Below, one piece after another: positions 14,158-50,420 of a stretch of 53,331 bases of DNA; positions within the stretch are counted from its first letter, which is position 1; the number at the start of each line of letters is the position of its first letter. The position numbers and the translations under genes are program-made. A model generated the notes under the pieces. That model had not been told where the DNA came from. It worked only from the letters and a program-made list of their open reading frames with translations, and searched no databases. The DNA is from Nitrospirota bacterium (GTDB lineage: Bacteria > Nitrospirota > Thermodesulfovibrionia > Thermodesulfovibrionales > Dissulfurispiraceae): contig JBBIQQ010000001.1 of NCBI GenBank assembly GCA_037442225.1, positions 1-53,331 of the forward strand. Reading direction: 5' to 3'.

Positions 14158-14159
14158 GG

Positions 14160-16142: not shown

Positions 16143-16583
16143 TTAGGCCTCCACGGAAAGCTGCCGCTTGGGCTGAATACCGAACGAATCCAGAAAATTA
16201 TAGGAAGTCTTGACGTACTGCAGGGATTTTTCAATCAGCACGCTGTTGAAACGGTTCAGTTCGGCGATACTGCTCACAATCGCCTTGAACTTGGAGGCAA
16301 TGCTGGAAAGTCGGTCACGGTAATCGATTTCAGCAAGCTGTGCAATGTCTGATATGGTTCTGCCGGAGAAGCCGAGCGAAGAAAGAGCCCGCTCCCGGGA
16401 TTCATCGCAGAGGCGGATGCCGGTAATAATAATTTCCTTTTCGCGCAGCAACAGTTCCAGAGCCGCCGGATCGAGACCGACAATTACCTCTCGTTCTTTC
16501 TGTAACAGAACGACCAGTTGGGCGCAGAGTTCAAACTCCTTCTCCAGAATCCTCAGCAATTCTTCATATAATGGAATCAACAA
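16143..16583 (-). CDS. flgN: FlgN-like export chaperone
   Basis: 146-aa helical protein between flgM and flgK; FlgN-like N-terminal pattern. Confidence 0.65.
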   Translation of the reverse strand: MLIPLYEELLRILEKEFELCAQLVVLLQKEREVIVGLDPAALELLLREKEIIITGIRLCDESRERALSSLGFSGRTISDIAQLAEIDYRDRLSSIASKFKAIVSSIAELNRFNSVLIEKSLQYVKTSYNFLDSFGIQPKRQLSVEA

Positions 16584-16863
16584 TAACCTCCTTCAACAGC
16601 TTGTCCGCAACCATCTCTGCCCGAACCGAATACGTACCGGATTCAACGGATTTCCTGATGGTTTCTACTTTTTCGGTCCGGACCTCCGACAGGGCGTTCA
16701 CTGCCGCAATCAGACGACTCATCTCCCCTGCCCCGCGCGAAAGCGTTATCTGGTCTCCGCTTGCCGGAATCTCCCCCGTCTCCGCCGGCTTTTTCCGGAA
16801 AATCGCAGGCTCCGGCTTGTTGATTTCGGGGCTTTTCAGTCCGTCGGTTTTTCTGACATCCAT
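16564..16863 (-). CDS. flgM: Anti-sigma-28 factor FlgM
   Basis: 99 aa; C-terminal EKVETIRKSVESGTYSVRAEMVADKLL. Sigma28 promoter upstream. Confidence 0.85.
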   Translation of the reverse strand: MDVRKTDGLKSPEINKPEPAIFRKKPAETGEIPASGDQITLSRGAGEMSRLIAAVNALSEVRTEKVETIRKSVESGTYSVRAEMVADKLLKEVIVDSII

Positions 16864-16903
16864 TGCGGCACCTCCTGAATAAGTTCACTAATGCTCTCTA
16901 CAT

Positions 16904-16930
16904 ATATCGGAGGAATGCCGCCAAACCTTA
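16904..16930 (-). promoter_or_regulatory. Sigma28 (FliA) promoter of flgM-flgN...
   Basis: Minus strand TAAGGTTT-N11-TCCGATAT versus consensus TAAAGTTT-N11-GCCGATAA, about 40 nt upstream of the flgM ATG. Confidence 0.75.
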
Positions 16931-17629
16931 ACCAAACGTTCCCAGAATTCCAGCCGGGTCAACCGCCACACCATCCTTACGCACTTCAAAGTGAACGTGC
17001 GGGCCGGTAGCTCGTCCGGATGATCCTGATAATGCAATTGCAGTGCCAGGTTTGATAATGTCGCCGAGTTTTACGAGGTTGCGCGCATTGTGACCATACA
17101 GCGTGGTGAGCCCGTCGCCATGATCAATGACAACACAATTACCATATCCATTTGAATAGCCGCTGAAAACAACCTTTCCTTCCGCAACTGTCCGCACGGG
17201 CGAATTTTCTGCGACGGCAATATCTATACCTGCATGGTGACGCATTTTTCCGTCTATCGGATCCAGCCTGAGGCCGAATCCGGAGGTAATTCTTCCCTGC
17301 GTTTGCGACAGCAAAGTTGCCGGATCAGGCAATTGTCCCGAAACAGGAGGTCTGACCGGGAAATCACGTCTTTTTTCAATAACAGATTGGTTTTTCATCA
17401 TTATGTCACCAAATCCAACCCCGCGTTCGGCAAGAGAGTCCGCAATATGAGCAGTTATGGTCGGCAGAAAGCTCCCGATAGTCTTGTTTTTGGCAAAGGA
17501 TGTCTGTTCAAACATAACCTTCAAAAATTCATTCAAAAAAACCGTCTCAACCTTTTTTGCCACTGCAGCAGGATCCTGCCCGGCAGATTTTGTCTGTGCC
17601 TGAATACCCATAATGGCTTGCGGTTTCAT
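16928..17629 (-). CDS. flgJ: FlgJ-like: rod-binding domain fused to an M23 peptidase domain
   Basis: N-terminal VETVFLNEFLKVMFEQ (rod-binding). C-terminal HHAGIDIAV...GYGNCVVIDHGDGL...GPHVHFEV (M23). Confidence 0.8.
   Translation of the reverse strand: MKPQAIMGIQAQTKSAGQDPAAVAKKVETVFLNEFLKVMFEQTSFAKNKTIGSFLPTITAHIADSLAERGVGFGDIMMKNQSVIEKRRDFPVRPPVSGQLPDPATLLSQTQGRITSGFGLRLDPIDGKMRHHAGIDIAVAENSPVRTVAEGKVVFSGYSNGYGNCVVIDHGDGLTTLYGHNARNLVKLGDIIKPGTAIALSGSSGRATGPHVHFEVRKDGVAVDPAGILGTFG
17034..17048 (-). promoter_or_regulatory. Perfect sigma54 core TGGCAC-N5-TTGC inside the 3' end of flgJ; candidate second promoter for flgM
   Basis: Minus strand TGGCACTGCAATTGC, about 170 nt upstream of the flgM ATG. 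Confidence 0.5.
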
Positions 17630-18768
17630 TAAATGATCACCAGATCAGCCTTAAGGCTTCCCGCTGCCTTGATTGCCTGCAGTATGGCAACCAGATCCTT
17701 CGGGCTAACTCCCAGGGTATTCAGAGCCTTCACCAGCTCTCCTATGGTCGGTCCTTTCACCTCAGTCAGAAAAGCCTTCTTCTCTTCGCTCTTAACCTCG
17801 CTCTGCGTCACAGCAACCGTGGCTGCTCCGCGAGGCGCCAGCGGTCCCGGCTGCGATACCTGTATTTCGGTTTTGATTTCAATTGTCAGACCACCATGCG
17901 CCAGAGCAACCGGCGATATGGCAACCCGCTCTCCTATCACCACAGTGCCAGTCCGCTCGTTGACAACCACCCTCGCAGGGACATCAACATCAACCGTCAG
18001 TTGTTCAATAGAAGCCATAAACTCCAATGCGCGGTCACGATACGTCAAGGGCACAGTTATGCCTACAGAAGATGGGCTTTCTACCTTGGCTACTGACTTT
18101 CCAAATTGAGCGTTAATTTTTTCGGCGACCCTCTGCGCGGTGGTAGTATCCTGCGCAGCGAGTATCAGCATCAATTTTTCCTTATTATTCAATTGAACAG
18201 GAACTTCTTTCTCAACAAGAGCTCCGTTGGGAATCATCCCGACATTCGGGTGATTTTTGATGGTCGTACCCCCCCCAGCGACAAAGCCGCCGATGGAGAC
18301 CGGACCCTGTGCTACGGCATAGACTGTTTCATCGACGCCGGTCAGGGGGGTCATGATAAGTGTTCCGCCCTGCAAACTTTTTGCGTCGCCTATCGATGAG
18401 ACGGTAACATCCACTCTGGATCCCGGCTTAATGTTCGTCTGAAGTTTTGCTGTCACCAGCACAGCTGCGATGTTCTTGGTTTTACCTTTCACATCGGCAA
18501 GGTTTACCGCGACACCCATGCGCCGCATCATGTTGACAAACGGCTGATAAATGTAGGTCCCGTCCTTGTCGCCCGTCCCGTTCAAACCGACAATAATGCC
18601 ATAGCCGACGAGTTCATTTTCCCGAACGCCGGAAAAGGTGGAAATGTCCTTAATACGTTCAGCTGATGCGTAATATGGTGCGATGCAGGTAAAAAGAGCC
18701 ACCGCGAAAAAAAACCGGAAAATTGTGCCGCATCGGTGGGAATTTTTTTCAGATTGCCGGGAGAACAT
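17629..18768 (-). CDS. flgI: P-ring protein
   Basis: Signal peptide ...APYYASA then ERIKDI...GYGIVVGLNGTGD. Start moved to ATG 18768 (GAGGA upstream), clear of flgH. Confidence 0.9.
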   Translation of the reverse strand: MFSRQSEKNSHRCGTIFRFFFAVALFTCIAPYYASAERIKDISTFSGVRENELVGYGIIVGLNGTGDKDGTYIYQPFVNMMRRMGVAVNLADVKGKTKNIAAVLVTAKLQTNIKPGSRVDVTVSSIGDAKSLQGGTLIMTPLTGVDETVYAVAQGPVSIGGFVAGGGTTIKNHPNVGMIPNGALVEKEVPVQLNNKEKLMLILAAQDTTTAQRVAEKINAQFGKSVAKVESPSSVGITVPLTYRDRALEFMASIEQLTVDVDVPARVVVNERTGTVVIGERVAISPVALAHGGLTIEIKTEIQVSQPGPLAPRGAATVAVTQSEVKSEEKKAFLTEVKGPTIGELVKALNTLGVSPKDLVAILQAIKAAGSLKADLVII

Positions 18769-18794
18769 GCTTTTATTCCTCAATACGAAAATGT

Positions 18795-19523
18795 TCAGAA
18801 CGGCCATATGTTGTCCAGCAAACGTACGAGCCATCCCTGAGACTGCTTGTCGCCAATGACGCCGTCACCGACCATATAAATTTGTGCATCGCCGACATTT
18901 TGCGACAGCACGGTATTACCAGGGGTGATATCATCGGGCCTGACGATACCTCTCAGCACGATGATTTCCTTTTCATTGTTGACAATGAGTTCCTTGCGGG
19001 ACTCCAGAACCATATTCCCGTTCGGCAGCACTTCAACGACCTTTGCTGTTATACGCGCCGTAAGAGTTCCCTGTCTTGCGGTATCGCCCGTCCCCTTGTA
19101 GCTCGATGTATTGGATCCTTTAGCGTGCGGTGAAAAGACGGCACCTGGCGCATATTGTCCCGCAAGAATAGGCAGCTTGTGGATGCCGAAATCCTTCTTC
19201 ATGCCAAAAATATCGTCTATGGAGTACTCTGCGGATGAGTTGCCGCTCGTATTCGTAGTCGCCTTTTTTGAAGCCGAAGTTGCCTCGGTTATCAGAATAG
19301 TGACAAGGTCATTCACCTGGCGTGCGCGCCGGTCGCTGAACAGCGATTTGTTGTCGCGCCAGAGAGAGCCCTCAGTGCTTGCCGGAGATGGTTCCTTCAC
19401 ATCGACATACCTAGGCGGCATGGGAGCCTCTCTGATTTCCCGAGCATCTTTGAGTCCGTTGCATCCTTGAAGCAATAAAGCAACAAATATAGCATAAGTT
19501 ATTGTTTTGTTTGATTTCATCAT
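18795..19523 (-). CDS. flgH: L-ring lipoprotein
   Basis: Lipobox LLQGC; GSLW...LFSDRRA...; C-terminal GWL.R..D..WPF. Confidence 0.9.
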   Translation of the reverse strand: MMKSNKTITYAIFVALLLQGCNGLKDAREIREAPMPPRYVDVKEPSPASTEGSLWRDNKSLFSDRRARQVNDLVTILITEATSASKKATTNTSGNSSAEYSIDDIFGMKKDFGIHKLPILAGQYAPGAVFSPHAKGSNTSSYKGTGDTARQGTLTARITAKVVEVLPNGNMVLESRKELIVNNEKEIIVLRGIVRPDDITPGNTVLSQNVGDAQIYMVGDGVIGDKQSQGWLVRLLDNIWPF

Positions 19524-20233
19524 ATCTTTACCCTCACGGTATCGCTCGACATCAAAACTCCCATTATCTCCTTTTTTGACGCTTCGCAGTAAACGCGAAC
19601 GGTGCTGCCGACGGTTCCTTCAGAACGCAAAACACCCTTGGTCGTGATAAACACGGAACCGCTGTCAATCTCAACCCTGACCTTCTGTCCGCGCTTCACC
19701 AAACCCGCTATCGCAAAAAAATCCCTCTTCAGCACAAGACCCTCGGTAAGATTGATTCTGAGGGGTTTGTCCAGCAGGTCGTTTTTGTTCATCACGGCCC
19801 CGACCGGAAGGCGGGAGGCTCTCTGCCGGATTAAATAGAAATCGCTATCGCCAAGAATTGTACCCTTCGGAAGCGGCTTGGCAGTAATGAAAACATCTAC
19901 CAGCGATTCATAGAGCACCTCAACGCCTAGTTTGCGAACAGTGTCCCGCTTGTCGAGGAGTTCAACGTTGTAATTTATGCGGTTTCTTCCCCCATACCCA
20001 TCAAAAGAGACGGCTCCAATCCGGTACATGCCTTCTGCGGCAAGCAGTTCCTCCCCATAAAGCACGCGGATGTCCTGCAATTCGACATCACCAGGGACAG
20101 CATCTCGAATTTCCTGCGCGAGACGGGAACGCAGTTGATCGACAAGCGGCGTCGCGCCTGCCAATCCCGTAAAGATAAGACTCCAGAGAATCACCGCCAG
20201 CGTGATGAAAACAATATGAATGTTTCGCCTCAT
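19520..20233 (-). CDS. flgA: P-ring assembly chaperone FlgA
   Basis: Signal peptide, SAF/FlgA-type C-terminus (G..V.V......V...G). Confidence 0.75.
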   Translation of the reverse strand: MRRNIHIVFITLAVILWSLIFTGLAGATPLVDQLRSRLAQEIRDAVPGDVELQDIRVLYGEELLAAEGMYRIGAVSFDGYGGRNRINYNVELLDKRDTVRKLGVEVLYESLVDVFITAKPLPKGTILGDSDFYLIRQRASRLPVGAVMNKNDLLDKPLRINLTEGLVLKRDFFAIAGLVKRGQKVRVEIDSGSVFITTKGVLRSEGTVGSTVRVYCEASKKEIMGVLMSSDTVRVKI

Positions 20234-20238
20234 GTCAT

Positions 20239-21027
20239 TTACCGTTTAAGTCCAATTGTTGTCTGCAGCATTTCGTCGGATGTCTGGACCGACTTGGAAT
20301 TCGTGTCAAACGCACGTTGCGCGATAATCAGATTCGCAAGTTCTTCAACGACGTTAACGTTGGAATGTTCAAGAAATCCCTGATTCAGCGTGCCGCGGCC
20401 CTCAAGCCCAGGCTGTCCAGTAATGGGGTCTCCTGACGCATCAGTCTGGAGAAAAAGGTTTTTCCCGACCGCAAGAAGTCCTGCAGGGTTAATGAAGCGT
20501 GATATTTCGATGGTTCCCACCTGAGTTGGCGTCGTGGAGCCACCCTGTAAAATGGATACCACACCGTCCTGACTTATCGTAATGCTCACGGTATCGCTCG
20601 GAAGAGTAATTGCCGGCTCAAGCGGCAAACCGTCGGCATTGACGATGCGGCCGGTATTGTCCAGCTTGAAGGCACCCGCCCGGGAATATGCAACGGTGCC
20701 ATCGGGACGGTTGATCTGGAAAAAACCCTCCCCTTCGATGACGATATCGAGCGAGTTCCCGGTTGGAATGAAGTCGCCCTGGGTAAAGTGCTTTACGATT
20801 GCGGCAGGTTTTACCCCAAGACCGACCTGCAAGCCGACCGGGAACTGATTGCCTTCCGATGATGTTCCGCCCGGTGTTCTGAGCGTCTGGTAGAGCAAAT
20901 CCTGAAACTCAGCCCTGCCTTTTTTATATCCGGTTGTATTGATGTTGGCAATGTTATTCGAAATGACATCAACATTCAGTGACTGTGCCTGCATTCCGGT
21001 AGCAGCGGTAAACAATGAACGAATCAT
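20239..21027 (-). CDS. flgG: Distal rod protein
   Basis: [15 protein letters not shown]...[11 protein letters not shown]; C-terminal [20 protein letters not shown]. Confidence 0.95.
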
Positions 21028-21036
21028 GAAATCCTC

Positions 21037-21786
21037 CTAAGCCCCTGGCTTTCCGATATCGGTAACAGCTCTCTGGGCAAGATCGTTGAAATTCTGAATG
21101 ACTTTATGAGACATTTCATACTGCCGAAGCGCCGAAATCATATTTACGAGCTCATTAACCGGATTTACATTGGAACGCTCAAGAACTCCCTGGGAAACTT
21201 CAAAATCGACAGCATCAGTTTCTGTGCCGGTAAAAAGGGAGCCGCCGGCATGGCGGATATCGGACAGCTTTGAAACTTTCAGTTCAGCAATAAGAGTATT
21301 GGACTTCTGCTGCACATTGAGCAAATAGATATTGCCATCCGATGATACGCTTAACGTCCCCTCGGTGTTGTCAATCACAACAGGCTGATTGCCCCTGTCC
21401 ATGACCCGGTAGCCATCCGGCGTTGAGAGAAATCCGTCGCGGCTCAGCACAAATGCCCCATTCCGCGTGTAGAACTGCTGACCATTCTTCTCGACAACAA
21501 AAAAAGCGTCTGCGCTCAGGGCGAAATCAAGAGGATTGCCCGTTGTCTGAAACGCCCCGGCGGTCGAGTCAATCGCAAATTTGCCGGTGGATGTCATTGT
21601 TCTGGCATTTGGGTAAACCGAAGGAGGAGCCTGCTGAATTCCTTCTAACGCAGGATAGAAGCGGGATGACAGAATAGTTCTCTTAAAACCGCTCGTATTG
21701 ACATTCGCCAAATTATTGGCGACGTTGTCCATCTCGTTGCTTCGCTGAATGGCTCCCGTTGCCGCAATATACATGCCCTTATACAT
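21037..21786 (-). CDS. flgF: Proximal rod protein
   Basis: MYKGMYIAATGA...NLANVNTSGFK; C-terminal SNVNPVNELVNMISALRQYE. Start moved to ATG 21786 because the track extension overlaps the sigma54 promoter. Confidence 0.85.
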   Translation of the reverse strand: MYKGMYIAATGAIQRSNEMDNVANNLANVNTSGFKRTILSSRFYPALEGIQQAPPSVYPNARTMTSTGKFAIDSTAGAFQTTGNPLDFALSADAFFVVEKNGQQFYTRNGAFVLSRDGFLSTPDGYRVMDRGNQPVVIDNTEGTLSVSSDGNIYLLNVQQKSNTLIAELKVSKLSDIRHAGGSLFTGTETDAVDFEVSQGVLERSNVNPVNELVNMISALRQYEMSHKVIQNFNDLAQRAVTDIGKPGA

Positions 21787-21823
21787 TCTGTCGGCCCCCG
21801 TTGTAAAGAGATTATTTATATCA

Positions 21824-21839
21824 AGCAATTAAAGTGCCA
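21824..21839 (-). promoter_or_regulatory. Sigma54 promoter of flgF-flgG-flgA-flgH-flgI-flgJ
   Basis: Minus strand TGGCACTTTAATTGCT (GG and GC at canonical spacing). Confidence 0.8.
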
Positions 21840-21944
21840 GGCCGTGTCAACGAACGACTGGAAAATGCAAGTATTTGAATAAACAAGATTTATAATGATA
21901 AGCCGAGGAGAAATACTAAAGCGGCAGGCAGCGGCAGCGGAAAA

Positions 21945-22154
21945 TTATGCCTTGATGTTTATGTGTTTTTTTCCGTCAGAGGATTCAGCGGAGTCCTGGT
22001 GGCGCGATTCGTGCTCCGCCTCAGGCTCCTGCGGTATTCCTTCACGCCTGGCGGCTTTTCGCCTGACACGAAGTCCGGCATAAACATATCCAGAGGCGGT
22101 TCTTGATATACCGCTTACCCGGTAGGGTTCCCGAATGCCGTCTTCCAGTGCCAT
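21945..22154 (-). CDS. Hypothetical 69-aa protein (or non-coding transcript) behind a sigma28-like promoter
   Basis: Only open frame in the 360-nt gap between HDOD and flgF: MALEDGIREPYRVSGISRTASGYVYAGLRVRRKAARREG... No family recognised, weak SD. Confidence 0.3.
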   Translation of the reverse strand: MALEDGIREPYRVSGISRTASGYVYAGLRVRRKAARREGIPQEPEAEHESRHQDSAESSDGKKHINIKA

Positions 22155-22163
22155 GATGCCTTG

Positions 22164-22190
22164 TTATCGGCGCAGAACGCAACTTCTTGA
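22164..22190 (-). promoter_or_regulatory. Sigma28-like promoter
   Basis: Minus strand TCAAGAAG-N11-GCCGATAA. The -10 is an exact consensus octamer; the -35 core is TCAA versus TAAA. It ends 9 nt before ATG 22154. Confidence 0.5.
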
Positions 22191-23033
22191 CTAATCGAGC
22201 AACTGCGCTTTCTGCTCCTGATAGGTATTTTTGAACAATGCTTCAACTGCGAAAAACTGCTTGTCACTCAGCCCAAGCACTTCAAAGGGAACCTTATGAT
22301 TGGACATTGGCATGCGCAGCCCAACGCCGAGATTTACACAGATTGAGTCTGCAACGCTTGTTATCCGACAGAGAGATTCGAGAGTCTTATCGTTCAGCAC
22401 GCTGAAGTCAGAGGCATGATGGTATTCCACCACAGCCTCAAGGTTTCTGGGCAGTTTCCACTTGCGGGCTATCAGCCCCCCGACCTGACAGTGATTGAAG
22501 CCAAGCATTTCATATTCAACCTCGGCAAATGACATCCCTGCCTCATAAACCTTTTCGACAATGACTGAATACGATTCGGGCATTGCGTTGTTCAGGATGG
22601 TCTTGCCGACATCATGAATGAGCCCCCCGATCATCGCTTCTTCGGGGGAAAGCAGTTTTGTTTCGAGAGCGAGAAGCGATGCCGCGATAGAGACACCGAG
22701 ACTGTGCTCCCAAAGACGCTGCTCAAAAAGACCGAATTTCCGATGCAGGTCTTTCAGCGATGCCGCAACAACGAGGGACTTCATGGTGTTAAACCCGATG
22801 AGCAGAATTCCGGTTGATATAGTGTCAATGCTGCGATCACGTCCGTAATACGGCGAGTTTGCGATACGGAGCAGACGGGCGGAAAACGCCTGATCGCGTC
22901 CAATGATCCTTTCCAGCTCCTTTATGGAGGAATAATCGTCATTAATCAGCTGAAGCACCTTCATCGCGATAGGCGGAAGGCTTGGAATGTCGACTGTCTC
23001 CAGAATAATTTTTTCGAGGATTTCTTCTTTCAT
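22191..23033 (-). CDS. HDOD-domain signalling protein
   Basis: LPPIAMKVLQLINDDYSS...LWEHSLGVSIAA...GLIHDVGK pattern. Start moved to ATG 23033 (GGAGG upstream). Confidence 0.8.
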   Translation of the reverse strand: MKEEILEKIILETVDIPSLPPIAMKVLQLINDDYSSIKELERIIGRDQAFSARLLRIANSPYYGRDRSIDTISTGILLIGFNTMKSLVVAASLKDLHRKFGLFEQRLWEHSLGVSIAASLLALETKLLSPEEAMIGGLIHDVGKTILNNAMPESYSVIVEKVYEAGMSFAEVEYEMLGFNHCQVGGLIARKWKLPRNLEAVVEYHHASDFSVLNDKTLESLCRITSVADSICVNLGVGLRMPMSNHKVPFEVLGLSDKQFFAVEALFKNTYQEQKAQLLD

Positions 23034-23100
23034 GCATGCCTCCATAAGCCAGTGTCTGACAGTTGATTGTAGCGCAATCGAAGATGAAATACCATACAGA

Positions 23101-24162
23101 TCAAGCCGAATTCACAATTTCCCCCGCTATTTCTTCCAGCGAGAGAATCTTGTCGGCAATCCCTGCGTCTACAACTGCCTTTGGCATGCCGTACACGACA
23201 CAGGATTCCTCATTTTGGGCAAAAATGCGACCGCCGGTTCTCTTCAACTCAGTCATGCCTTTTGCCCCGTCGTTTCCCATCCCCGTCAGAATGACTCCCA
23301 GAGCCCTTCCGGGGAAAGTCTCCGCAACGGAAAGCATAAGAGCGTCGACAGAAGGGCGATAGATGAAATTTTCGCGATCATCTGAAATTGTCACCACAGT
23401 CTCGATTCCCCGTTTGCGGATGACCCGCATATGCCCGCCTCCGGGAGATACCAAGGCAAGACCGGGGCGAAGCGCATCGCCCTCTTTTGCCTCACGCACC
23501 TCTATTTTGCTGAGCTGGTTCAGCCGCTCGGCAAACGGGCCGGTAAAATTCGGAGGCATGTGCTGCGCGATGACAATGGGGAGCGGGAACTCTTTTGGAA
23601 GATTCGGCAATATTTCCTGAAGAGCCTTGGGGCCGCCGGTCGATGTTCCAATGGCAACCACCCCAGCACGGCGATCTCCTGTCGTCCTCATAACCGGCGA
23701 AGCGGAAGTTCGAGCCTGCGAAGCACTTGGTGGGCGCACCGCCGGACGGAAGGCACGACGGGTGACTCCCTGCTTGGCAAGCTGCTTGATTTTATCGATC
23801 AACACTTCCTTCAGGCGGAGAATATTCAGCGACAGATCCGAAAGATTTTTTGGAATGAAATCAACAGCCCCGATTTCTAGCGCTTCCAGCGTCGCATGAG
23901 CGCCTTCGGTTGTCAGAGAGCTTACCATGATGACAGGAACCGGCGTATTCGTCATGATATGCCGCAACGCTGAAATGCCGTCCATGCGGGGCATTTCAAT
24001 ATCCATTGTCACAATATCAGGCTTCAGCTGCACGATTTTTTCAATCGCCTCAAGCCCGTCCCGGGCCACTCCGACAATCTGAATTTCGGGATCCGACTGC
24101 AGCATGTTTGAGAGAGCGCTCCGCATGAACGCGGAATCATCAACAACAAGAACTCTAACCAT
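23101..24162 (-). CDS. cheB: Chemotaxis methylesterase/deamidase CheB
   Basis: REC (VLVVDDSAFMR...MDIEMPRMDG) plus esterase domain (GTSTGGPKAL, GMGNDGA). Confidence 0.95.
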   Translation of the reverse strand: MVRVLVVDDSAFMRSALSNMLQSDPEIQIVGVARDGLEAIEKIVQLKPDIVTMDIEMPRMDGISALRHIMTNTPVPVIMVSSLTTEGAHATLEALEIGAVDFIPKNLSDLSLNILRLKEVLIDKIKQLAKQGVTRRAFRPAVRPPSASQARTSASPVMRTTGDRRAGVVAIGTSTGGPKALQEILPNLPKEFPLPIVIAQHMPPNFTGPFAERLNQLSKIEVREAKEGDALRPGLALVSPGGGHMRVIRKRGIETVVTISDDRENFIYRPSVDALMLSVAETFPGRALGVILTGMGNDGAKGMTELKRTGGRIFAQNEESCVVYGMPKAVVDAGIADKILSLEEIAGEIVNSA

Positions 24163-24214
24163 AAAACCCCTTGTTCATAAATTATTAGAATACCCCTCTT
24201 GCTGCAGACGCATT

Positions 24215-24415
24215 CTAGAAGCCGAAATCCTTGAGCAGATCGTCAACACCTTCCTGCGAGACTTTGTCCGCGCTGGTGCCAGGACCATAATAGGCCGCTT
24301 CTTTTGCCGGCTCCATCTTGACGCCAAAAGTTGCAATCAGGCGGACAAGTTCACTCTCAATCTCTCCAACCAGATTAATAACCTTCTTGATGCTCTGTCC
24401 TGTGAGATCCTGAAA
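24215..24415 (-). other. In-frame continuation of the CheZ domain behind TAG 24416..24418: catalytic motif and CheY-P-binding C-terminal peptide
   Basis: Own translation: FQDLTGQSIKKVINLVGEIESELVRLIATFGVKMEPAKEAAYYGPGTSADKVSQEGVDDLLKDFGF, then TAG at 24215..24217. Confidence 0.85.
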
Positions 24416-25414
24416 CTACTGGGTTGTCAGGATTTCAGTCAGATCGTCCTCAAGCGAGTTTTTGAACGATTTCATGAAGGCGACCGATTCCTCGGGTCCC
24501 GTCATCCTTCGCAAATGAGAAGAGAAGTCATCCATCGCAAGGATATATTTTTCGACGATATTCATTGTCTTGTTCGCCGCGGCTTCCGTCCGGTCGATGA
24601 CGAGTTGCAGCTGATCAACAGCATTCGGCATCTCGGTGACAGCCATATCCTTCAGTTTCGGATCAAGCGCCTCCTTGAAGCTCCGGATCGAGTCATGCAG
24701 TTTGCGCGTAACCTTGCCGACCTCCTTGAACAGTCCGGCATCGCCGAAGCTCATAATCGACTGCATCGCTTCGTCAGCCTTGTCGTAGTCCTGATTCGAC
24801 ACTGCCGTCATGAACTCAACCAGCCGTTCGAACATCACCTGATTTGAAACGTGCCGACCACCGGACTTGCTCTCAAAATATGCCTTTGCATCCACAATTT
24901 CTTTGACAAGCACTTCACCGCCCATGGTCTGGACATGTTTGACAACTTCTACCTTCTCATCTCCCACATCACCGACATTCATCACCTGTTCTTCAAGCAT
25001 GGCCACATCCTCGCCCGGCACAAGCTTTCTGGTGTCAATAAGCACCACAAGACGGTCGTTGACTCTGGCAACTCCTTGCACCTGCTCGATATTTCCCTGC
25101 AGGAAGTTCTCGGCAGGCTCAATTTGATCTTCTTCTATCGTGATGACGCCGGTGATTCCATCGATTAAAACGCCGAAGGTCATGCGTCCGCTTGAAACGA
25201 CAATGACCTTCTGTCCGGGCTCGCTTTCTTCAAGCCCGACAAGCTTTTTCAAATTCACAATGGGAATAATGCGTCCGCGAAGGTTTGTAACACCATCTAT
25301 GTAATTCGGCGCCTGGGGAAGTTTTGTAAGTTGCGGCCGGTTGATAATCTCCTGAACCTTCAGGATTGGAATGGTGTATTCGCAACCATTCATGATGAAA
25401 CCTATATGTTGCAT
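24416..25414 (-). CDS. CheW domain (aa ~1-135) fused to the N-terminal part of a CheZ-like phosphatase; the ORF as called ends at an internal TAG
   Basis: CheW: IPILKVQEIINRPQLTKLPQAPNYIDGVTNLRGRIIPIVNLK. CheZ: VGKVTRKLHDSIRSF...MPNAVDQLQLVIDRTEAAANKTMNIVE. Confidence 0.9.
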   Translation of the reverse strand: MQHIGFIMNGCEYTIPILKVQEIINRPQLTKLPQAPNYIDGVTNLRGRIIPIVNLKKLVGLEESEPGQKVIVVSSGRMTFGVLIDGITGVITIEEDQIEPAENFLQGNIEQVQGVARVNDRLVVLIDTRKLVPGEDVAMLEEQVMNVGDVGDEKVEVVKHVQTMGGEVLVKEIVDAKAYFESKSGGRHVSNQVMFERLVEFMTAVSNQDYDKADEAMQSIMSFGDAGLFKEVGKVTRKLHDSIRSFKEALDPKLKDMAVTEMPNAVDQLQLVIDRTEAAANKTMNIVEKYILAMDDFSSHLRRMTGPEESVAFMKSFKNSLEDDLTEILTTQ

Positions 25415-25454
25415 AAAGCCTCCGTATCGGTCATAATTTCAGGGACAAACCGGC

Positions 25455-27257
25455 CTATTTTCTGCCGGCGAGAAACATTCTGCGGGCGATAACCGCAAGA
25501 TCGAGAATCAGCACAACGCGCCCGTCGCCGGTAATCGTGGCACCCAGTATCCCGCACTCCTCAGATTCTACGCCATTAATCGTCTTGATGACTACTTCTT
25601 CCTGACCTATGAGCTCGTCAACAGCAATACAGAAACGCCGGTCAGCCACCGAGGCCACGAGCACATAGCTGTTTTCCTGATCCTGTGCAGTCCGTGAGCG
25701 CACGCCGAGAACTTCCGACATGACAAAGAGCGGCAGGACTTTTCCCCGAATCGTCAGGACTTGTTGACCGGTAACATTTTTAATGTCGCTTCGCTTGACC
25801 CGAAGCGTCTCCTCAATCATGGATTGCGGCAAGGCGTAGCGCTCCTGCCCGATCCGTATCATCATCGCCTGAATGATGGCGAGTGTCAGCGGCAGGCTGA
25901 TGCGGAAGGTGCTCCCGACATCTTTTTTTGTGACAACCTCGACATAGCCGTTCAGCTTCGCCACGTTCGTCTTGACAACATCCATGCCGACACCGCGGCC
26001 GCTCAATTCCGTCGACACCTCTTTGGTCGAAAAACCAGGAAGAAATATCAGATCAATTGCAGTTTCATCCGACATTTTTTCCGCATCCTCTTCGGAGACA
26101 AGGCCGTTCTTTATTGCCTTGCGCCTGACCGCATCGACATCAATGCCCCGGCCGTCATCGGTCACTTCAATGACAATCTGGGTTCCCTGCTGAACAGCGC
26201 TGATGATAATGCGCCCATTGCGGGACTTACCCTTTACTTCACGCTCAGCATTGTTTTCCAGTCCATGGTCAATGGAGTTGCGGATAATATGGACCATCGG
26301 GTCGCCGATGTTCTCAATGACGCTCTTATCTACTTCGGTATCTTCGCCGAAGATTTCGAGATCGATATCCTTGCCGAGCTGACGGGACATATCGCGAACC
26401 ATGCGCGGAAACTTGGAAAAGACTTTTGCAATCGGCTGCATGCGTATTTTCATGACCGCAAGCTGCAGGTCGGATGTAACGCGGTCGAGAAAGCTGGTCG
26501 TCTCAAGCAGTCCCTCGATATTCTGGTCGCCGCTGTATGTCTGCTCGATCTTCACCGCCAGATTCAGCAGACGATTTCTGGCAAGAACGATCTCGCCCGC
26601 TAGATCCATCACTTTGTCGATGCGGTTCACATCAACCCGGAGCGTCTGAACAACCTCCCGCTCCCTGCTCGTCTGCTGAGGCTGTTCTTCAATGCCTGCC
26701 TGCGGCTTTGGAGGAGGCGGCATGTCATCATTCCGTGTTTCGGCAACAATGTCCTGCTCCGGAGATCTGGCGGACTCCTGCGGCTCAACCTGCGGGACAG
26801 AGGCCTCAGCGACGATAAACGCAGAGGGCGAAGCAGCATAATGCGCGGCAGTGGAAGCCTCAACAGCCATAGGGGCGTCCATTGCGGCATCAAGCCGCTG
26901 CAGCAGTTCGGAAATGTCCTCCTCCGCACCATCGCGCAACTTGACATGCCCAATCAAAACGCGAAGCATATCAACACTGTTGAGAATAGTATCCATCAGT
27001 ACCGGCGAAGGAGCAATGCAGCCTTCGCGAATCCGTTTCATGATGCTTTCCGCACGATGGGCAACATCGATGATCTGCTGAAATCCCAAAAAGCCGGCGG
27101 CGCCCTTCAGCGTATGCATCCCCCTGAATATTTCATTCAGCATCTCTTTATCGTATCCGCGCGACTCCAGCTCAACGAACAGGGGATCGATACGGTCGAG
27201 CGTCTCCTCCGCCTCCGTAACGAATTCCGATATTATTTCGTCCATCTCATCGGCCAT
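25455..27257 (-). CDS. cheA: Chemotaxis histidine kinase CheA
   Basis: Hpt HTLKGAAGFLG, dimerisation and HATPase (DDGRGID, GRGVGMDVV) domains, C-terminal CheW-like domain. Confidence 0.95.
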   Translation of the reverse strand: MADEMDEIISEFVTEAEETLDRIDPLFVELESRGYDKEMLNEIFRGMHTLKGAAGFLGFQQIIDVAHRAESIMKRIREGCIAPSPVLMDTILNSVDMLRVLIGHVKLRDGAEEDISELLQRLDAAMDAPMAVEASTAAHYAASPSAFIVAEASVPQVEPQESARSPEQDIVAETRNDDMPPPPKPQAGIEEQPQQTSREREVVQTLRVDVNRIDKVMDLAGEIVLARNRLLNLAVKIEQTYSGDQNIEGLLETTSFLDRVTSDLQLAVMKIRMQPIAKVFSKFPRMVRDMSRQLGKDIDLEIFGEDTEVDKSVIENIGDPMVHIIRNSIDHGLENNAEREVKGKSRNGRIIISAVQQGTQIVIEVTDDGRGIDVDAVRRKAIKNGLVSEEDAEKMSDETAIDLIFLPGFSTKEVSTELSGRGVGMDVVKTNVAKLNGYVEVVTKKDVGSTFRISLPLTLAIIQAMMIRIGQERYALPQSMIEETLRVKRSDIKNVTGQQVLTIRGKVLPLFVMSEVLGVRSRTAQDQENSYVLVASVADRRFCIAVDELIGQEEVVIKTINGVESEECGILGATITGDGRVVLILDLAVIARRMFLAGRK

Positions 27258-27258
27258 A

Positions 27259-27666
27259 TCAGCCTCCTGCTTTCAACGACGGTTTCCTCTCCGCTATCTT
27301 CTCGAGCTTTTCCTTAAGAACTTCAGCGGTAAACGGTTTCACGACATAATTGTCGACTCCCGCCTTAATTGCTTCGATAACCTTTTCCTTTTCAGCTTCG
27401 GCTGTTACCATGAGAAACGGGACATCTTTCAGTGGAGGCGGCTCAGACCGTATAGCACGGAGCAAATCAATACCTTCCATATTCGGCATGTTCCAGTCAG
27501 AAATAACCAGGCCGAAACCACCGCCTTTCAGCCTGGACAACGCGGCAACGCCGTCTTCCGCTTCATCAATATTTTCGAATCCGAGTTGCTTCAAAAGGTT
27601 CTTGACAATACGACGCATCGTCGGAAAGTCATCAACAACCATCACCTTTATTTTGAAATCAAACAC
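27259..27666 (-). CDS. cheY: CheY response regulator
   Basis: [13 protein letters not shown]...[11 protein letters not shown]...VVKPFT. Probable GTG start at 27666 (GGGAGGGGA upstream); the track ATG is at 27687. Confidence 0.9.
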
Positions 27667-28060
27667 CGTCTTCCCCTCCCTGTGCAAACATCTTTTTTAG
27701 AATCTTCTTGACGCTCGATGTTATCTGTTCGGCATTGGTAGGTTTCACGAGGTAATCATCCACACCCGCGGCTGCCGCTCGCTTCTTTTCTTCTTCGTCA
27801 GCCTCCGTAGTAACCATCAGAATGGGGACATGGCTCCAGTTCGGATCAGCCTTCAGCGTCTTGGTCAATTCAATGCCGTCCATAAACGGCATGTTCATGT
27901 CGGTAACCACAAGATTGATATTTTCAGTCCCCATCTTCTCAAGCGCATCGAGGCCATTTTCGGCTGTAACAACTTCATAGCCCTTGCCTTTCAGGTAGAG
28001 GCTCAGAATTTTGCGTGTTGTCTTATCATCGTCCACCACAAGAATTTTCATTAATTTCAC
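27659..28060 (-). CDS. Second single-domain CheY-like response regulator
   Basis: [13 protein letters not shown]...[12 protein letters not shown]...LVKP. Confidence 0.85.
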
Positions 28061-28086
28061 CTCTTGAGCAACCCTGTTCTGTATAA

Positions 28087-28917
28087 CTAAACTTTTTGGT
28101 AAAGAACGACCCGATTAATAACCGTCGGCCGCAATGCCCTGGTAATGTTATGCAGGCTTTCCGAGGTGCCGACAATCAGTGAGCCTCCGGGCCGCAGCGC
28201 GTCGTACATAAGCGCCAGAGCCTTCTGTTTGGCTTTTTCGTCAAAATATATCAGAACGTTCCGGCAGAATATCACGTCAACGCCGCGAATGGTTTTCACG
28301 TCTTTATCGCTCATCAGATTAATCTTCATAAAACGGACATTTGTTTTGACCGATTCAGCAAGCTTGAAATTCTGGTCCTTGTTTGTGAAATATTTTGATA
28401 GATATGCCGGAGGCACGTTTCGGACGGCATATGAGCCGTACACAGCCGCTCTCGCTGAAGCGAGCACCGACTCGCTGATGTCCGACGCGAGAATATCCTT
28501 TCGGAACCCTGCCAATTCAGGACGCTCCATGAGCATCATGGCAATAGTGTATGCTTCCTCGCCGGTTGAACTCGCCGCCGACCATATCTTGATATCACGG
28601 CGGGCGGCCTTCGTGTTTTCCTCTATGATCTTTTTCAGAAGTTCTCCGCACAGCACGTCAAACTGCTGCGGCTCGCGGAAGAAGAAGGTTTCATTGGTTG
28701 TAATCAGCTCGAAGAGTTTAATCAGCTCATTCCTGTCTCCGCCGAATTTCAGCAGATAGAGGTACTCATCATACCCCTTGAGGTTCCTTTCCTGAACACG
28801 CCGTCCAAGGCGGTTCTCCAGAAAATACTTTTTATTGTCAGGGATAAAAATACCGCTCTGCTCATAGATGAAATCGCGGAGTTGCTTAAAGACATCGTCT
28901 GCCATTGACGCTATCAT
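28087..28917 (-). CDS. cheR: Chemotaxis methyltransferase CheR
   Basis: TNETFFFREPQQF, IWSAASSTGEEAYTIAM, FCRNVLIYF. Confidence 0.95.
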   Translation of the reverse strand: MIASMADDVFKQLRDFIYEQSGIFIPDNKKYFLENRLGRRVQERNLKGYDEYLYLLKFGGDRNELIKLFELITTNETFFFREPQQFDVLCGELLKKIIEENTKAARRDIKIWSAASSTGEEAYTIAMMLMERPELAGFRKDILASDISESVLASARAAVYGSYAVRNVPPAYLSKYFTNKDQNFKLAESVKTNVRFMKINLMSDKDVKTIRGVDVIFCRNVLIYFDEKAKQKALALMYDALRPGGSLIVGTSESLHNITRALRPTVINRVVLYQKV

Positions 28918-30761
28918 AGAAAAGAAAGCACCTCCTCAATTTTTGCGCGGACATCGTCGTTCTTGTGCTCACGGTGCTGCACCAGAAGTTCATACGCCTC
29001 CGGTCCGCCAATCTCCCTGATGGCATCAAGCGCGGACATGACCACCGGAATGAAAGGATCCTCAATCACGGCGCCCAGTTTCTGCAGAGCCGTTTCAGGC
29101 TCACACGCCTTGGCGATTGCTTTGACCGTATAAAACCGGACCCATGGGTCTTCATCTTTCAGGATTGCAAACAGCACTGGAGTGCAGCAATGCGCATCGC
29201 CCATGGCGACAACGGCAATCTTGCGAATATCAGGCTCAGCGTCAGTGATAAAGGAGTTCAGCCGATCAAGCGCCTCAGATGTTGCGACACGCCCCAGACC
29301 CTTGATCGCGGCAAATTTCACATCCCTGTCCTCGTCCTCAGTCAGTTTCAGCAAAATATCGACATCATCAATGGCGCCCACCGCAATCTTGCGAACCTGA
29401 CCGCTGTATGAAGAAAGACCGTCCGCGAACTTTGCGGCATCAATTTTCAAAAGAGATTCAACGATTTTTTCGATAATGTCGGAGAATTTTTCGATGCGCA
29501 AAAGATCAAGCAACGGCTGGAACGCAACCGGCATGCCGATCTTTCCGAGCGCCTCAATGGCGCACTTTCTCACATGAGCGTCAACGTCCTTGAGTGAAGT
29601 CTCCAAAAGAGGCCCTACGCTCGACGGTTCTCCGATATCTCCCAAAGCTTCAGCAGAGGCGCGCCGCAGGTCGCGGCTCGTTGCGGAGAGGCTGTCCATG
29701 AGCATCGGCACTGCGAGTTTGCTGCCGAGATCTCCGAGGATCTCTATGGCAAACGCCTTGCCGCGGTACTTCATCTCCGGAGACGCGAGCAGTTTGAGCA
29801 GTTCAGTTTCTGAGTCTATCGAAAGCAGTGTTCTGCTGACGGCAGAGTGGCGTTCTTCAGTGTCAGGCATGGCCGGATCGAGAACGCCTACAATATCCAC
29901 AAGCAGTGGAACCGCGCTCTTCGCGTTCAGCACTTCAACCCCCCGCAGCGCAATGAACTTGTCCTCCCAGTCGCCTTCTTTCAGCATGCGAATCAGATGC
30001 TCGGTCAGACCGACCATTGCAGGGGTGATTCCAATCTGGACAATGCTCTTTACGATTGCGCTCCGTTCATCATCCGACGCGCTGAAAAGATACGACATGA
30101 GCGTTTCGCTCACTTCGGGCGTGCCGATTTTCCCGAGCGTTTCGATTGCCGAAAAACGGACGACCTCAGACGGGCTCTTAAGCAACTCCACGATAAACGG
30201 CGCGGCCTCAGTAGCTTCAAGTTCTCCAAGAGACTGAAGAGCGTAGAAACAGACCCACTCCTCATCCCTGAGCGCCTCTTCAAGTGAAGGGATAGCGCCC
30301 TCGCAGCCGAGTTCGCCAGCCGCCTTGGCAGCAGCCGCGCGGACGTTGGCGTTTTCATCTTTAAACATGGGAAGCAGGCGCTCGTACTCCACGCCTTCCT
30401 TGATATCGCACATCAGGTCAACCGCGAATTTGCGGATATCTGGATCCTTGTCTTCGAGCAGAACAGTCAAAAACGGCACCGTAACGGCACCGAGGCGGGT
30501 CAGTATGATTAACGCAGTGTTGCGCAGGTAAGTTCCTTCCCGCAACAGCGGCAATACCATATACGCGGTCACCTCTCCGCCCACCGCGATGAGAGAACGC
30601 ATTGCGGCATCCTGAACTCCAGCGCTGGGATCGCTCAGGGACTTGATCAGCGGATATATGGCTCGTTCGTCTCCCTCTGCGAGTTGTTCTGCCGCCTGAC
30701 GCCGGACAGAAGGATCCTGTGCCTGCAGCTTCTGTATGACTTTTGGTAGATTTTTGAGCAT
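28914..30761 (-). CDS. 615-aa HEAT-repeat (PBS-lyase HEAT-like) protein, translationally coupled to cheR
   Basis: Repeated ...D.D..VR..A..ALG.IG...A...L units along the whole length. Its stop overlaps the cheR start by 4 nt. Confidence 0.8.
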   Translation of the reverse strand: MLKNLPKVIQKLQAQDPSVRRQAAEQLAEGDERAIYPLIKSLSDPSAGVQDAAMRSLIAVGGEVTAYMVLPLLREGTYLRNTALIILTRLGAVTVPFLTVLLEDKDPDIRKFAVDLMCDIKEGVEYERLLPMFKDENANVRAAAAKAAGELGCEGAIPSLEEALRDEEWVCFYALQSLGELEATEAAPFIVELLKSPSEVVRFSAIETLGKIGTPEVSETLMSYLFSASDDERSAIVKSIVQIGITPAMVGLTEHLIRMLKEGDWEDKFIALRGVEVLNAKSAVPLLVDIVGVLDPAMPDTEERHSAVSRTLLSIDSETELLKLLASPEMKYRGKAFAIEILGDLGSKLAVPMLMDSLSATSRDLRRASAEALGDIGEPSSVGPLLETSLKDVDAHVRKCAIEALGKIGMPVAFQPLLDLLRIEKFSDIIEKIVESLLKIDAAKFADGLSSYSGQVRKIAVGAIDDVDILLKLTEDEDRDVKFAAIKGLGRVATSEALDRLNSFITDAEPDIRKIAVVAMGDAHCCTPVLFAILKDEDPWVRFYTVKAIAKACEPETALQKLGAVIEDPFIPVVMSALDAIREIGGPEAYELLVQHREHKNDDVRAKIEEVLSFL

Positions 30762-30827
30762 CTCCCCCCCCTCGGTTAATGCTTAACGTAATAATTATAG
30801 CTAATATTTTTAAAAATAACACAAAGA

Positions 30828-31550
30828 TCAGCCGCGAAATGCGTCAAGATGGTTCCGGAGCTTAATCAGCGCCTTGCCGTGCAGCTGGCAGACCCGTGAT
30901 TCGGTAATCCCAAGAACAGCTCCGATTTCCTTCATGGTGAGTTCTTCATAATAATACAAAGTCAGAACGGTACGTTCCTTATCAGGCAGTTCCTCTATGG
31001 CATTGCCGAGTGCTTTTTTGACTTCTTTCAGGCTCAGACGTTCAATCATGTCCGGCTCATCCCGGTCCGCCAGACACTGAAGAATGTCAAGATGCTCTCC
31101 ATCCTGATTCACGCCGAGAGATTCCAGGCTGATCATATTCAGGGCGTTCGCGGTGGACTGAGTCTTGTGAAGTTCCTGCAACGAAATATCGAGACGACCG
31201 GCAACTTCCTCATCGGTCGGAGGCCGTTCAAGCTTGTTCTGCAGGTCATCATAGGCACGCCGAACATCATCGAGCTTGCGGCGTGCGTCCTTGGACGCCC
31301 ACTGCATCGAGCGTATTTCATCAATCATCGCTCCGCGGATGCGAAAATCAGCAAAGGTGCTCAGCGAAGCGTTCATGGCGGGGTTAAAGCGCTCTATCGC
31401 TTCAAGAAGTCCAACGATGCCGGCTGAAACGAGGTCTTCGCTGCTCAGACCAGCAGGCAGCGCAAAGGAATATTTTCCGGCGTAATATTTTATGCGCGGA
31501 AGAAATTGGCGGACCAGGTCGTTCTTCTGCTCCTGCGTAAGTGTCCACAC
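30828..31550 (-). CDS. fliA: Flagellar sigma factor sigma28
   Basis: Sigma70 region 2 (GLLEAIERFNP) and region 4 HTH (LTMKEIGAVLGITESRVCQLH). GTG start. Confidence 0.9.
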   Translation of the reverse strand: MWTLTQEQKNDLVRQFLPRIKYYAGKYSFALPAGLSSEDLVSAGIVGLLEAIERFNPAMNASLSTFADFRIRGAMIDEIRSMQWASKDARRKLDDVRRAYDDLQNKLERPPTDEEVAGRLDISLQELHKTQSTANALNMISLESLGVNQDGEHLDILQCLADRDEPDMIERLSLKEVKKALGNAIEELPDKERTVLTLYYYEELTMKEIGAVLGITESRVCQLHGKALIKLRNHLDAFRG

Positions 31551-31580
31551 ATCAACTGTCTACCATAGGTCGCCTGCAGT

Positions 31581-32396
31581 TCATCCGACGCGCAGCGCGC
31601 GCCGCAGAAAGAACTGCAGGGTTCCGCCGGTATCTCCCAACGGCTGATCAATCAGGCGTTTTGCAATCTGCCCGAGCTTCTTTGCAAACAGACTGTTCGG
31701 ATGCATGACAATATGGCTCTTCTGTGCGATAATTGAGTCTTTCACATTCTGATCATAGAGCAGATAGCCGAGATAATCGATAGATTGATTCAAAAACTTG
31801 TCGGCCACCAGCGACAGCTTGCTGTATGTGTCGAATGCCTCCTTTTCCGACCGCGCCGTATTGACAATGAGCCGGAAATGGCGCATGCGGAAATCATTTT
31901 TCAGCACCTTGATAAGCGCGTAGGCATCAGCAATGGAGGTCGGCTCCGGTGTTGCAATAACAACAACCTCCTGAGCGGCGCTGCAGAAAAACAGGACGTT
32001 ATCCGAAATGCCGGCTCCCGTGTCTATTAGAAAAACGTCAAACTCAATATCAAAGTCTTCCAGTTCGGTCACCAGTTGCAGCCGCTGTTCGACTGAAAGA
32101 CTCGTCAAATCACGAACTCCGGAACCGGCAGGAATAATACTGATGCCGAGCGGTCCGCTCACGACAATATCCTTCAGCCGCTTCTGCCCTGCCAGCACGT
32201 GGCGCAGATTAAACTTCGGCGTAATGCCGAGCATGACATCGATATTGCTTAATCCGACATCGGCATCCATGACCAGCACTTTTTTATTGATGCTGGCATA
32301 GAAGAGCGCGAGATTTGCGACAAAGTTGGTTTTACCGACGCCTCCTTTGCCGCTGGATACCGCAATGATTCTCGGATGTTCAGTTGGCACAGGCAC
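31581..32396 (-). CDS. flhG: MinD/ParA-type ATPase FlhG
   Basis: Deviant Walker A SSGKGGVGKT, position between flhF and fliA, C-terminal amphipathic LQFFLRRALRV. Confidence 0.85.
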   Translation of the reverse strand: MPVPTEHPRIIAVSSGKGGVGKTNFVANLALFYASINKKVLVMDADVGLSNIDVMLGITPKFNLRHVLAGQKRLKDIVVSGPLGISIIPAGSGVRDLTSLSVEQRLQLVTELEDFDIEFDVFLIDTGAGISDNVLFFCSAAQEVVVIATPEPTSIADAYALIKVLKNDFRMRHFRLIVNTARSEKEAFDTYSKLSLVADKFLNQSIDYLGYLLYDQNVKDSIIAQKSHIVMHPNSLFAKKLGQIAKRLIDQPLGDTGGTLQFFLRRALRVG

Positions 32397-33417
32397 CTCC
32401 TGCTATGAGACTCGCAACAAAGTCCGGAGACGGCATCCGGATATCATCAGGCACAGACGGACCGTTGGTAACAAATGAGACCGGACGACTGCTGAGCAGG
32501 GCAAGATTATAGAGCGAACCATATTGGGCGGCGATATCGAGTTTGGGGAACCCGATGGTATCTATCAGCCCGGCATTGATATTCTGCCATATGCGCTCCG
32601 CCGCCTGCGCATTCATGGCCGCATCCATCAATAAACAGCGAGTCAGGGGGAATCCGGATGAAAAGACATCCTCAATATCGCGGAGCAACTCCCTGTAGTT
32701 ATATCCGGGAGTGTCAACGAGGACCGGGCCCCGTTCAATGTCCCGGTAAACCATCCTTGGAAGATCGCTCACCCTTTTCGTCACCTTCAGATCGCATCTG
32801 AGTTCCTGCGAAAGCTCCTTCATATGGGCAAATGAGCCGATGCGCTCAGAGTCGAGCGAGATGAGGCTCAGCCGTTTATGCTTCTGACGAAGCAGGTGGG
32901 CAACTTTGGAAAGCGTAGTGGTTTTGCCTACCCCCGGGGCGCCAAGGAAAAGAAATCCCCGTTCATCCGGCGCTGAAAAACATTGCACCTTCACATCCTG
33001 AGCAATGGCGGACTTCAGGCTCTCGACCGTTTCGTTCGATCGTTCCAGCAGAACAACAGCGAACTGCGGATCGACGCCATGCCTGATCAGAAGGTTGAAG
33101 AGGCCTTTCTTGTTTCCGCCGACACGGAGACCCGGCATGAGAGAAGAGAGTGTCTCCTTCAGATATCCCATCTCTTCGCGCATGCTGCGCAACTCGCCGA
33201 TCAGTTCTTCCATCTCGGCAGAAGACGAGCGACCTGATTCATCATCTCCCGGATCATCGACGGCGGCCGTGACTTCCACCATCGGTTTTTGGAGAAGGCC
33301 GAACCCCGCGTTTTTCATGCTTCTGCTCGACAGAATCATTGCATGATCACCGAGTTCCTGCTTGACCTGTTCAAGGGCTTCCTTGAAACTGCGCCCCGTA
33401 AATTTCCTGATCATCAT
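32380..33417 (-). CDS. flhF: SRP-type GTPase FlhF
   Basis: GAPGVGKTTT, VDTPG; N-terminal MIRKFTGRSFKEALEQVKQELG. Confidence 0.9.
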   Translation of the reverse strand: MMIRKFTGRSFKEALEQVKQELGDHAMILSSRSMKNAGFGLLQKPMVEVTAAVDDPGDDESGRSSSAEMEELIGELRSMREEMGYLKETLSSLMPGLRVGGNKKGLFNLLIRHGVDPQFAVVLLERSNETVESLKSAIAQDVKVQCFSAPDERGFLFLGAPGVGKTTTLSKVAHLLRQKHKRLSLISLDSERIGSFAHMKELSQELRCDLKVTKRVSDLPRMVYRDIERGPVLVDTPGYNYRELLRDIEDVFSSGFPLTRCLLMDAAMNAQAAERIWQNINAGLIDTIGFPKLDIAAQYGSLYNLALLSSRPVSFVTNGPSVPDDIRMPSPDFVASLIAGGACAN

Positions 33418-33451
33418 ACAGACGTCCTCCTCCGCATCCGCCTTGCCTTCA

Positions 33452-35512: not shown

Positions 35513-35515
35513 AAA

Positions 35516-36583: not shown

Positions 36584-36586
36584 GCC

Positions 36587-37324
36587 TTACCTCGTGAACG
36601 CCATAACGGCATCCCGCATGTGTTCAAACGCCTTGGAAAGCACAAAGAAGGTAAGGCTCAGTGATAAGGCTATGCTTACCAATCCGGAGGTAATGAGGAG
36701 CGGAAAGCTCACAAAAAAGATATTCGCCTGCGGCATCGCCTTGGTGAGGAACCCCATGCCGAGATTAATCAGCACCTGAATGAGAAATATCGGCGCGGCA
36801 ATCTTGAACGCCAGTGGGAACATGAAGGAGTTTAGCTTCAGCACCGCGTCGAACATTCCCTGATACTGAATCGAGGTGATGGCAAAGCTTCTCGCAATCC
36901 CTTCGATAAAAAAGAAGTGCATATCGAGCACAAAAAAGAGCCCCATGGCCAACATTGAATAAAAAAGGCTGAGCGGTCCGAGCACTTCGCCGAACTGCGG
37001 ATTAAATACCGCCGCCACACTAAGACCCATTTGAATGCTGATCCATTGCGCAGCCATCTCGGCTGCCCCGAGTATCAGCCGTGCGCAGAGGCCGATTGCC
37101 AATCCGATGAAAAACGACTCAAACACGGCGGCTGCCGGATTGGCAGACTGAATCTGCACAATCGGGAGCAGCAGAAGCGTCAGTGCAAGCGACAACCCAA
37201 TGCGCATAAATACCGGAGTCATGCGCGCTCCGAGAAATGGAATAAACGCAAGAATCGTCGCCACCCGGATAAAAATGGGGACGAATTTCTCACCGTATGT
37301 CAAAATCAGATTATAGAGTTCCAT
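36587..37324 (-). CDS. fliR: Export-gate protein FliR
   Basis: 245-aa polytopic membrane protein between fliQ and flhB. Confidence 0.9.
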   Translation of the reverse strand: MELYNLILTYGEKFVPIFIRVATILAFIPFLGARMTPVFMRIGLSLALTLLLLPIVQIQSANPAAAVFESFFIGLAIGLCARLILGAAEMAAQWISIQMGLSVAAVFNPQFGEVLGPLSLFYSMLAMGLFFVLDMHFFFIEGIARSFAITSIQYQGMFDAVLKLNSFMFPLAFKIAAPIFLIQVLINLGMGFLTKAMPQANIFFVSFPLLITSGLVSIALSLSLTFFVLSKAFEHMRDAVMAFTR

Positions 37325-50419: not shown

Positions 50420-50420
50420 G

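Follow-up and report, generated by a model that had tools for sequence, protein, structure and literature searches.

The closest described system to the gene analysed here is E. coli CheZ (PDB 1KMI), a protein of 214 aa whose C-terminal peptide, VDDLLDSLGF, binds CheY-P. The frame considered here lies on the minus strand of a 53,331-nt stretch of DNA (hereafter the window, positions 1..53331). It aligns directly with the C-terminal half of the E. coli protein, in a region that reads ..ILTTQ[S]FQDLTGQSIKKV.. in the window's family, and carries the similar sequence VDDLLKDFGF; however, it spans 399 aa, with a CheW-like domain fused at the N-terminus, and is interrupted by a TAG at a position that is occupied by Asp140 in E. 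coli CheZ and by Ser in the window's family.

Nearer in sequence are the CheW-CheZ fusions of Nitrospirota/Dissulfurispiraceae, including P0001 from GCA_964392915.1 and P0005 from GCA_035477855.1, which have the same architecture and length and 88-92% amino acid identity. Unlike the window gene, these fusions are uninterrupted and carry Ser (TCA/TCG/TCT) at codon 333, which is TAG in the window.

Two further kinds of system resemble the interruption itself. Young point-nonsense pseudogenes likewise combine a single premature stop with an otherwise intact and recently constrained gene, and share the stop with no relative; the window gene is set apart in that it lacks a second lesion and in that its stop is a candidate for a real change. 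In programmed readthrough and pyrrolysine UAG decoding, as in the window, an in-frame UAG is followed by a conserved coding frame, but the window stop is unconserved and without a stimulatory structure, and UAG terminates throughout the window.

An in-frame TAG within a CheW-CheZ frame

The window, whose G+C content is 51.7%, carries nearly all of its long ORFs on the minus strand, tightly packed, and includes one flagellar and chemotaxis supercluster made up of fliG/H/I/J/K, rod genes (assigned by synteny), cheR, two cheY genes, cheA, cheW-cheZ and cheB (Table 1). Within the 332-aa ORF called for cheW-cheZ, the N-terminal CheZ part comprises the first helix of the hairpin and half of the second. 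Minus-strand translation gives ...DDLTEILTTQ directly before the internal TAG; the 66 codons that follow, which read FQDLTGQSIKKVINLVGEIESELVRLIATFGVKMEPAKEAAYYGPGTSADKVSQEGVDDLLKDFGF, begin with FQDLTGQSIKK, end with LLKDFGF and hold both the D336/Q340 catalytic pair and the C-terminal CheY-P-binding peptide VDDLLKDFGF. Sequence and translation agree with the earlier note on this arrangement of a TAG, 66 sense codons and a second TAG. They also agree with its figure of 253 nt for the gap to cheB if translation ends at the first TAG; measured to the cheB ATG at 24162, the second TAG is only 52 nt away, the spacing in orthologous loci being 51-65 nt.

Table 1. Coordinates of the interrupted gene and its neighbours in the window
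Feature	Coordinates	Strand	Basis or remark
HEAT-repeat protein, 615 aa	28914..30761	minus	PF13646, E = 2e-79, 7 stretches
cheA, 600 aa	25455..27257	minus	immediately upstream of cheW-cheZ; TAG at the orthologous end
Called ORF, 332 aa	25414..24416	minus	CheW-like domain (aa 3-132), linker, N-terminal CheZ part
In-frame TAG, codon 333	24418..24416	minus	sequence and translation; aligns with E. coli CheZ D140
CheZ C-terminal part, 66 in-frame sense codons	24218..24415	minus	PF04344, 1KMI alignment
Natural stop TAG of the 399-codon CheW-CheZ frame	24217..24215	minus	same position as the orthologues' stop
cheB, receiver and methylesterase, 353 aa as in the orthologue	23101..24162	minus	synteny and Pfam of orthologous locus L001; next downstream
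HDOD/HD-domain protein	22191..23045	minus	
ORF of about 69 aa	21945..22154	minus	no Pfam match

The N-terminal domain belongs to the CheW-like family (PF01584, residues 3-132, E = 5e-33, 114 bits against a cut-off of 23.5). The CheZ profile PF04344 is matched on both sides of the TAG, by the N-terminal fragment at profile positions 3-77 (60.7 bits) and by the 66-residue tail alone at positions 127-203 of 203 (E = 2e-14, 54.4 bits), and the joined frame reaches 125.7 bits against a curated cut-off of 30.7. Because the profile is matched by the tail alone as well as by the joined frame, the tail represents the genuine C-terminal part of that CheZ domain rather than a frame that is open by chance.

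A PDB sequence search led to E. coli CheZ (1KMI), on which D336 corresponds to D143, Q340 to Q147 and the stop to D140, in the register that the earlier note had given. That note had also stated that the stop replaces the Asp140-aligned residue; the register stands, but the residue lost is a Ser conserved in the family. The window peptide VDDLLKDFGF aligns with VDDLLDSLGF at the 1KMI C-terminus and is invariant or nearly so in the family. The frame thus has the CheZ profile match, the catalytic Asp/Gln of the FQDLTGQ motif and the C-terminal peptide, both motifs being found only after the TAG, and what it does not have is a single uninterrupted frame across the domain, which is broken at codon 333.

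A family of intact CheW-CheZ fusions

A search of a 5.8-billion-protein collection with the joined frame returned 803 homologues, 120 of which were listed. All but one of these 120 are uninterrupted proteins of 380-411 aa with both Pfam domains, the only 332-aa entry among them being the window's own product (P0008). They derive mostly from metagenome-assembled genomes of Nitrospirota/Thermodesulfovibrionales/Dissulfurispiraceae and are annotated "protein phosphatase CheZ". The closest relative among the matches listed, GCA_964392915.1, shows 92% protein identity and 91% DNA identity, and relatives keep the same operon order of cheR, two cheY-like genes, cheA, cheW-cheZ, cheB, an HDOD/HD gene and flagellar rod genes. 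The gene in the window belongs, as an ordinary member, to a family of CheW-CheZ fusions that is widespread in Nitrospirota (Thermodesulfovibrionia/Dissulfurispiraceae).

The gene tables of the orthologous loci list no free-standing cheW among the neighbours, and the only other CheW-like domain lies inside CheA. A local phmmer search of the window for a second cheW or cheZ recovered only the gene itself, at a sensitivity too low to detect even the CheW domain of CheA. An intact CheW-CheZ fusion may act as array scaffold and phosphatase at once. A literature search on such fusions returned nothing relevant, and the term "CheW-CheZ" was not found in any paper of the library searched. A fusion of this kind would tether the phosphatase directly to receptor arrays, and the intact family is more worth study than one broken copy.

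The stop lies at a conserved serine codon and was found in no relative

The alignment column under the stop is Ser in 21 of 21 relatives, in the context TTQ-S-FQDLTGQ, and the eight closest loci, which comprise six distinct sequences at 75-91% nucleotide identity, have TCA, TCG or TCT at codon 333. Close relatives, whose codon at this site the earlier note had proposed to record, all have a Ser codon and none a stop. TAG is a single substitution from TCG, C-to-A on the coding strand; from the TCA of the closest relative two steps are needed, the first of them synonymous.

The site was followed more widely with the degenerate DNA pattern T-x-Q-NNN-F-Q-D-x-T-G-Q, searched in one genome per GTDB species, which matched at least 119 loci. 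A codon census over at least 127 loci (the pattern matches together with the earlier loci) gave Ser 88 times, Gln 17 times, Ala six times, Asp four times and a few other residues, and a stop at the site in 0 of 127 related loci among the matches listed. With TAG at the variable codon, and in a second scan TAA/TGA, the pattern had no match in 241 million JGI metagenome records, a collection that does contain many family members as sources of the homologue search. As relatives carry Ser and neither the census nor the JGI metagenomes yielded a stop, the stop is a singleton among the sequences searched, found in no relative. An exact-protein look-up of the 332-aa product for a second assembly of the same strain came back empty, and no other homologue in the collections searched was more than 92% identical.

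The residue that precedes FQD(L/I)TGQ is clade-specific: a TTQSFQDLTGQ clade has Ser and a TAQQFQDITGQ clade has Gln (CAG/CAA), while among the remaining pattern matches Advenella and two gammaproteobacterial MAGs have Ala, and Syntrophobacteraceae MAGs have Asp. Among the matches listed (loci L005-L123) it is fixed within clades and variable between them.

The sequence after the stop remained under selection

The earlier note had described the 66 downstream codons as perfectly conserved, which overstates the case: the tail differs from that of the closest relative at 4 of 66 residues (62/66 identical), with all 28 family-invariant positions kept. In comparison with the same relative, dN/dS is 0.109 before the stop and 0.086 after it. 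When differences were polarised with two outgroups and assigned to the window's own branch, the part upstream of the stop had accumulated 23 synonymous and 12 non-synonymous changes, and the tail three synonymous and no non-synonymous ones. The tail has about 154 non-synonymous and 44 synonymous sites, for which neutrality along the entire branch would predict about 10 non-synonymous changes per three synonymous; no indels were found in it. Given zero non-synonymous changes against about 10 expected, and no indels, selection has acted on the tail along practically the full length of the branch. It follows that the stop is extremely recent, or not real, or read through, and the last of these is disfavoured because the stop is a singleton and TAG is a normal terminator here.

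An old, decaying pseudogene is ruled out, as the part after the stop shows neither relaxed selection nor additional lesions. Relatives that share the stop above a degenerating frame, which the earlier note had named as the mark of such decay, were not found, the stop being a singleton.

A probable recent nonsense mutation or a possible consensus error

The explanation that we favour, and consider probable, is a candidate recent nonsense mutation at codon 333. One C-to-A change on the coding strand, preceded by at most one synonymous TCA-to-TCG step, would have turned the conserved Ser codon, most likely TCG, into TAG. The change would be very young, and either truly present in the sampled genome or the allele that prevails in the sampled population.

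The main competitor, possible though distinctly less likely, is a sequencing, consensus or assembly artefact in which the true codon is Ser (TCG), the gene is intact at 399 aa, and the T at plus-strand position 24417 has been miscalled or taken from a minority variant. Much of the evidence fits either account. The site is one substitution from the TCG of relatives and the tail is undecayed, observations that keep alive both the very recent mutation and the assembly error that the earlier note had proposed. An artefact would equally be expected to leave zero decay, as seen in the absence of non-synonymous tail changes on the window branch and in the retention of the 28 invariant residues. It would also fit a stop that is a singleton among known family members. 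Judging from its relatives, the contig is most likely metagenome-assembled, and the consensus of such assemblies can be distorted by low coverage or by a mixture of strains. Two further points count against a real mutation, namely that no second assembly of the same strain was found in the collections searched to confirm the TAG and that the TCA of the closest relative is two steps from TAG.

Against an artefact, neither a frameshift nor another interrupted gene is seen elsewhere in the 53-kb window, and the consensus looks accurate. Real segregating nonsense alleles are, per gene, commoner than substitution errors in a good assembly. From the clean consensus and these general base rates, we estimate that a real nonsense allele, segregating or recently fixed, is favoured several-fold over a substitution error that by chance creates a stop. 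A generally poor assembly was also considered and rejected: the overlapping ORF pairs at 43.9-47.8 kb, which had looked suspicious, proved to be intact fliK, fliJ, fliI, fliH and fliG with ORF calls extended upstream, and homologous sequence continues beyond no other stop in the window.

TAG as a terminator and the proposed recoding

The earlier note had raised programmed readthrough or recoding as a means of setting the ratio of a CheW-only scaffold to a full-length, array-tethered phosphatase. Leaky termination, a suppressor tRNA or pyrrolysine could each underlie such reading of the UAG. The intact downstream frame and the purifying selection upon it fit such a mechanism, and no other observation favours it; we regard it as very unlikely, as the stop is present in no relative, TAG is an ordinary terminator here and no downstream structure or element was found.

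The 58 long minus-strand ORFs of the window end in TAG (16), TAA (24) or TGA (18). In the same operon, cheA (600 aa) and cheR (276 aa) have TAG exactly at the orthologous stop, the orthologues having TAG and, in one case, TAA; the full-length cheW-cheZ frame likewise has TAG as its terminator, 67 codons beyond the internal one. Reassignment of TAG in the organism is excluded by these 16 of 58 ORF ends and by the orthologous stops of cheA and cheR. No other in-frame TAG with a homologous continuation was found in the genes of the window.

The local context of the internal TAG also argues against recoding. It is followed by T, a base also present after five other genuine TAG terminators of the window, and in E. 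coli a U in this place makes termination efficient rather than leaky. Folding of the 121 nt at and after the stop is no stronger than that of dinucleotide shuffles (z = +0.89; 163 of 200 shuffles fold at least as well), no Rfam element downstream of the stop scored better than E = 0.78, which is chance level, and no tRNA gene was found in the window. Neither a stop conserved in orthologues nor a downstream structure or known element, as expected of a recoding site, is thus present. Six distinct close sequences have a Ser codon at the site and the JGI records contain no stop; conserved recoding is ruled out by the codon census (at least 127 loci) and the two empty JGI scans. Moreover, the downstream sequence is nearly identical to that of relatives without the stop, and therefore no dedicated recoding signal has evolved.

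A narrower version, in which a near-cognate or suppressor tRNA encoded elsewhere would allow lineage-specific partial readthrough, yielding mostly CheW-only scaffold and a little array-tethered CheZ, is in our view equally improbable; if true, it would be a recent innovation of this one lineage for adjusting phosphatase dosage.

The least probable explanation, to which we give hardly any credence, is a functional split gene in which re-initiation would yield the intact tail as a separate polypeptide able to complement the N-terminal fragment. It is dismissed since the frame has no ATG, GTG or TTG from the stop up to the catalytic motif, its first start being the ATG at codon 367 (VK-M-EP), past D336/Q340 and without a Shine-Dalgarno-like sequence upstream; the sole ORF called in the stretch (24175..24336) is in another frame, and no relative has a split version.

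Predicted consequences of the candidate nonsense mutation

If the candidate nonsense mutation at codon 333 is real, translation would end at the TAG, 253 nt before cheB. The CheW domain would be kept in the 332-aa product, but the catalytic Asp/Gln, the CheY-P-binding peptide and half of the second bundle helix would be missing. With these lost, the product should be phosphatase-dead, to judge from its E. coli counterpart CheZ (1KMI). The strain or population would then be without the CheY-P phosphatase activity of this operon while retaining the CheW domain, with biased flagellar switching as a result. It would be an ordinary cheZ-type loss-of-function variant, and an interruption of this sort is an ordinary, already known kind of event.

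The matter is of little weight beyond annotation. There, the locus is better flagged as a CheW-CheZ gene with an internal stop (a pseudogene or possible sequence error) than as a 332-aa "CheZ".

Other genes of the chemotaxis region

Immediately upstream of cheR, and overlapping it by 4 nt, lies a gene whose product consists almost entirely of HEAT repeats (Table 1); it seems to belong to the chemotaxis operon. On the other side, the HDOD/HD-domain gene that follows cheB is itself followed by the short ORF of about 69 aa, and genes of 66-67 aa occupy the same place in two of the orthologous loci (L001 and L004).
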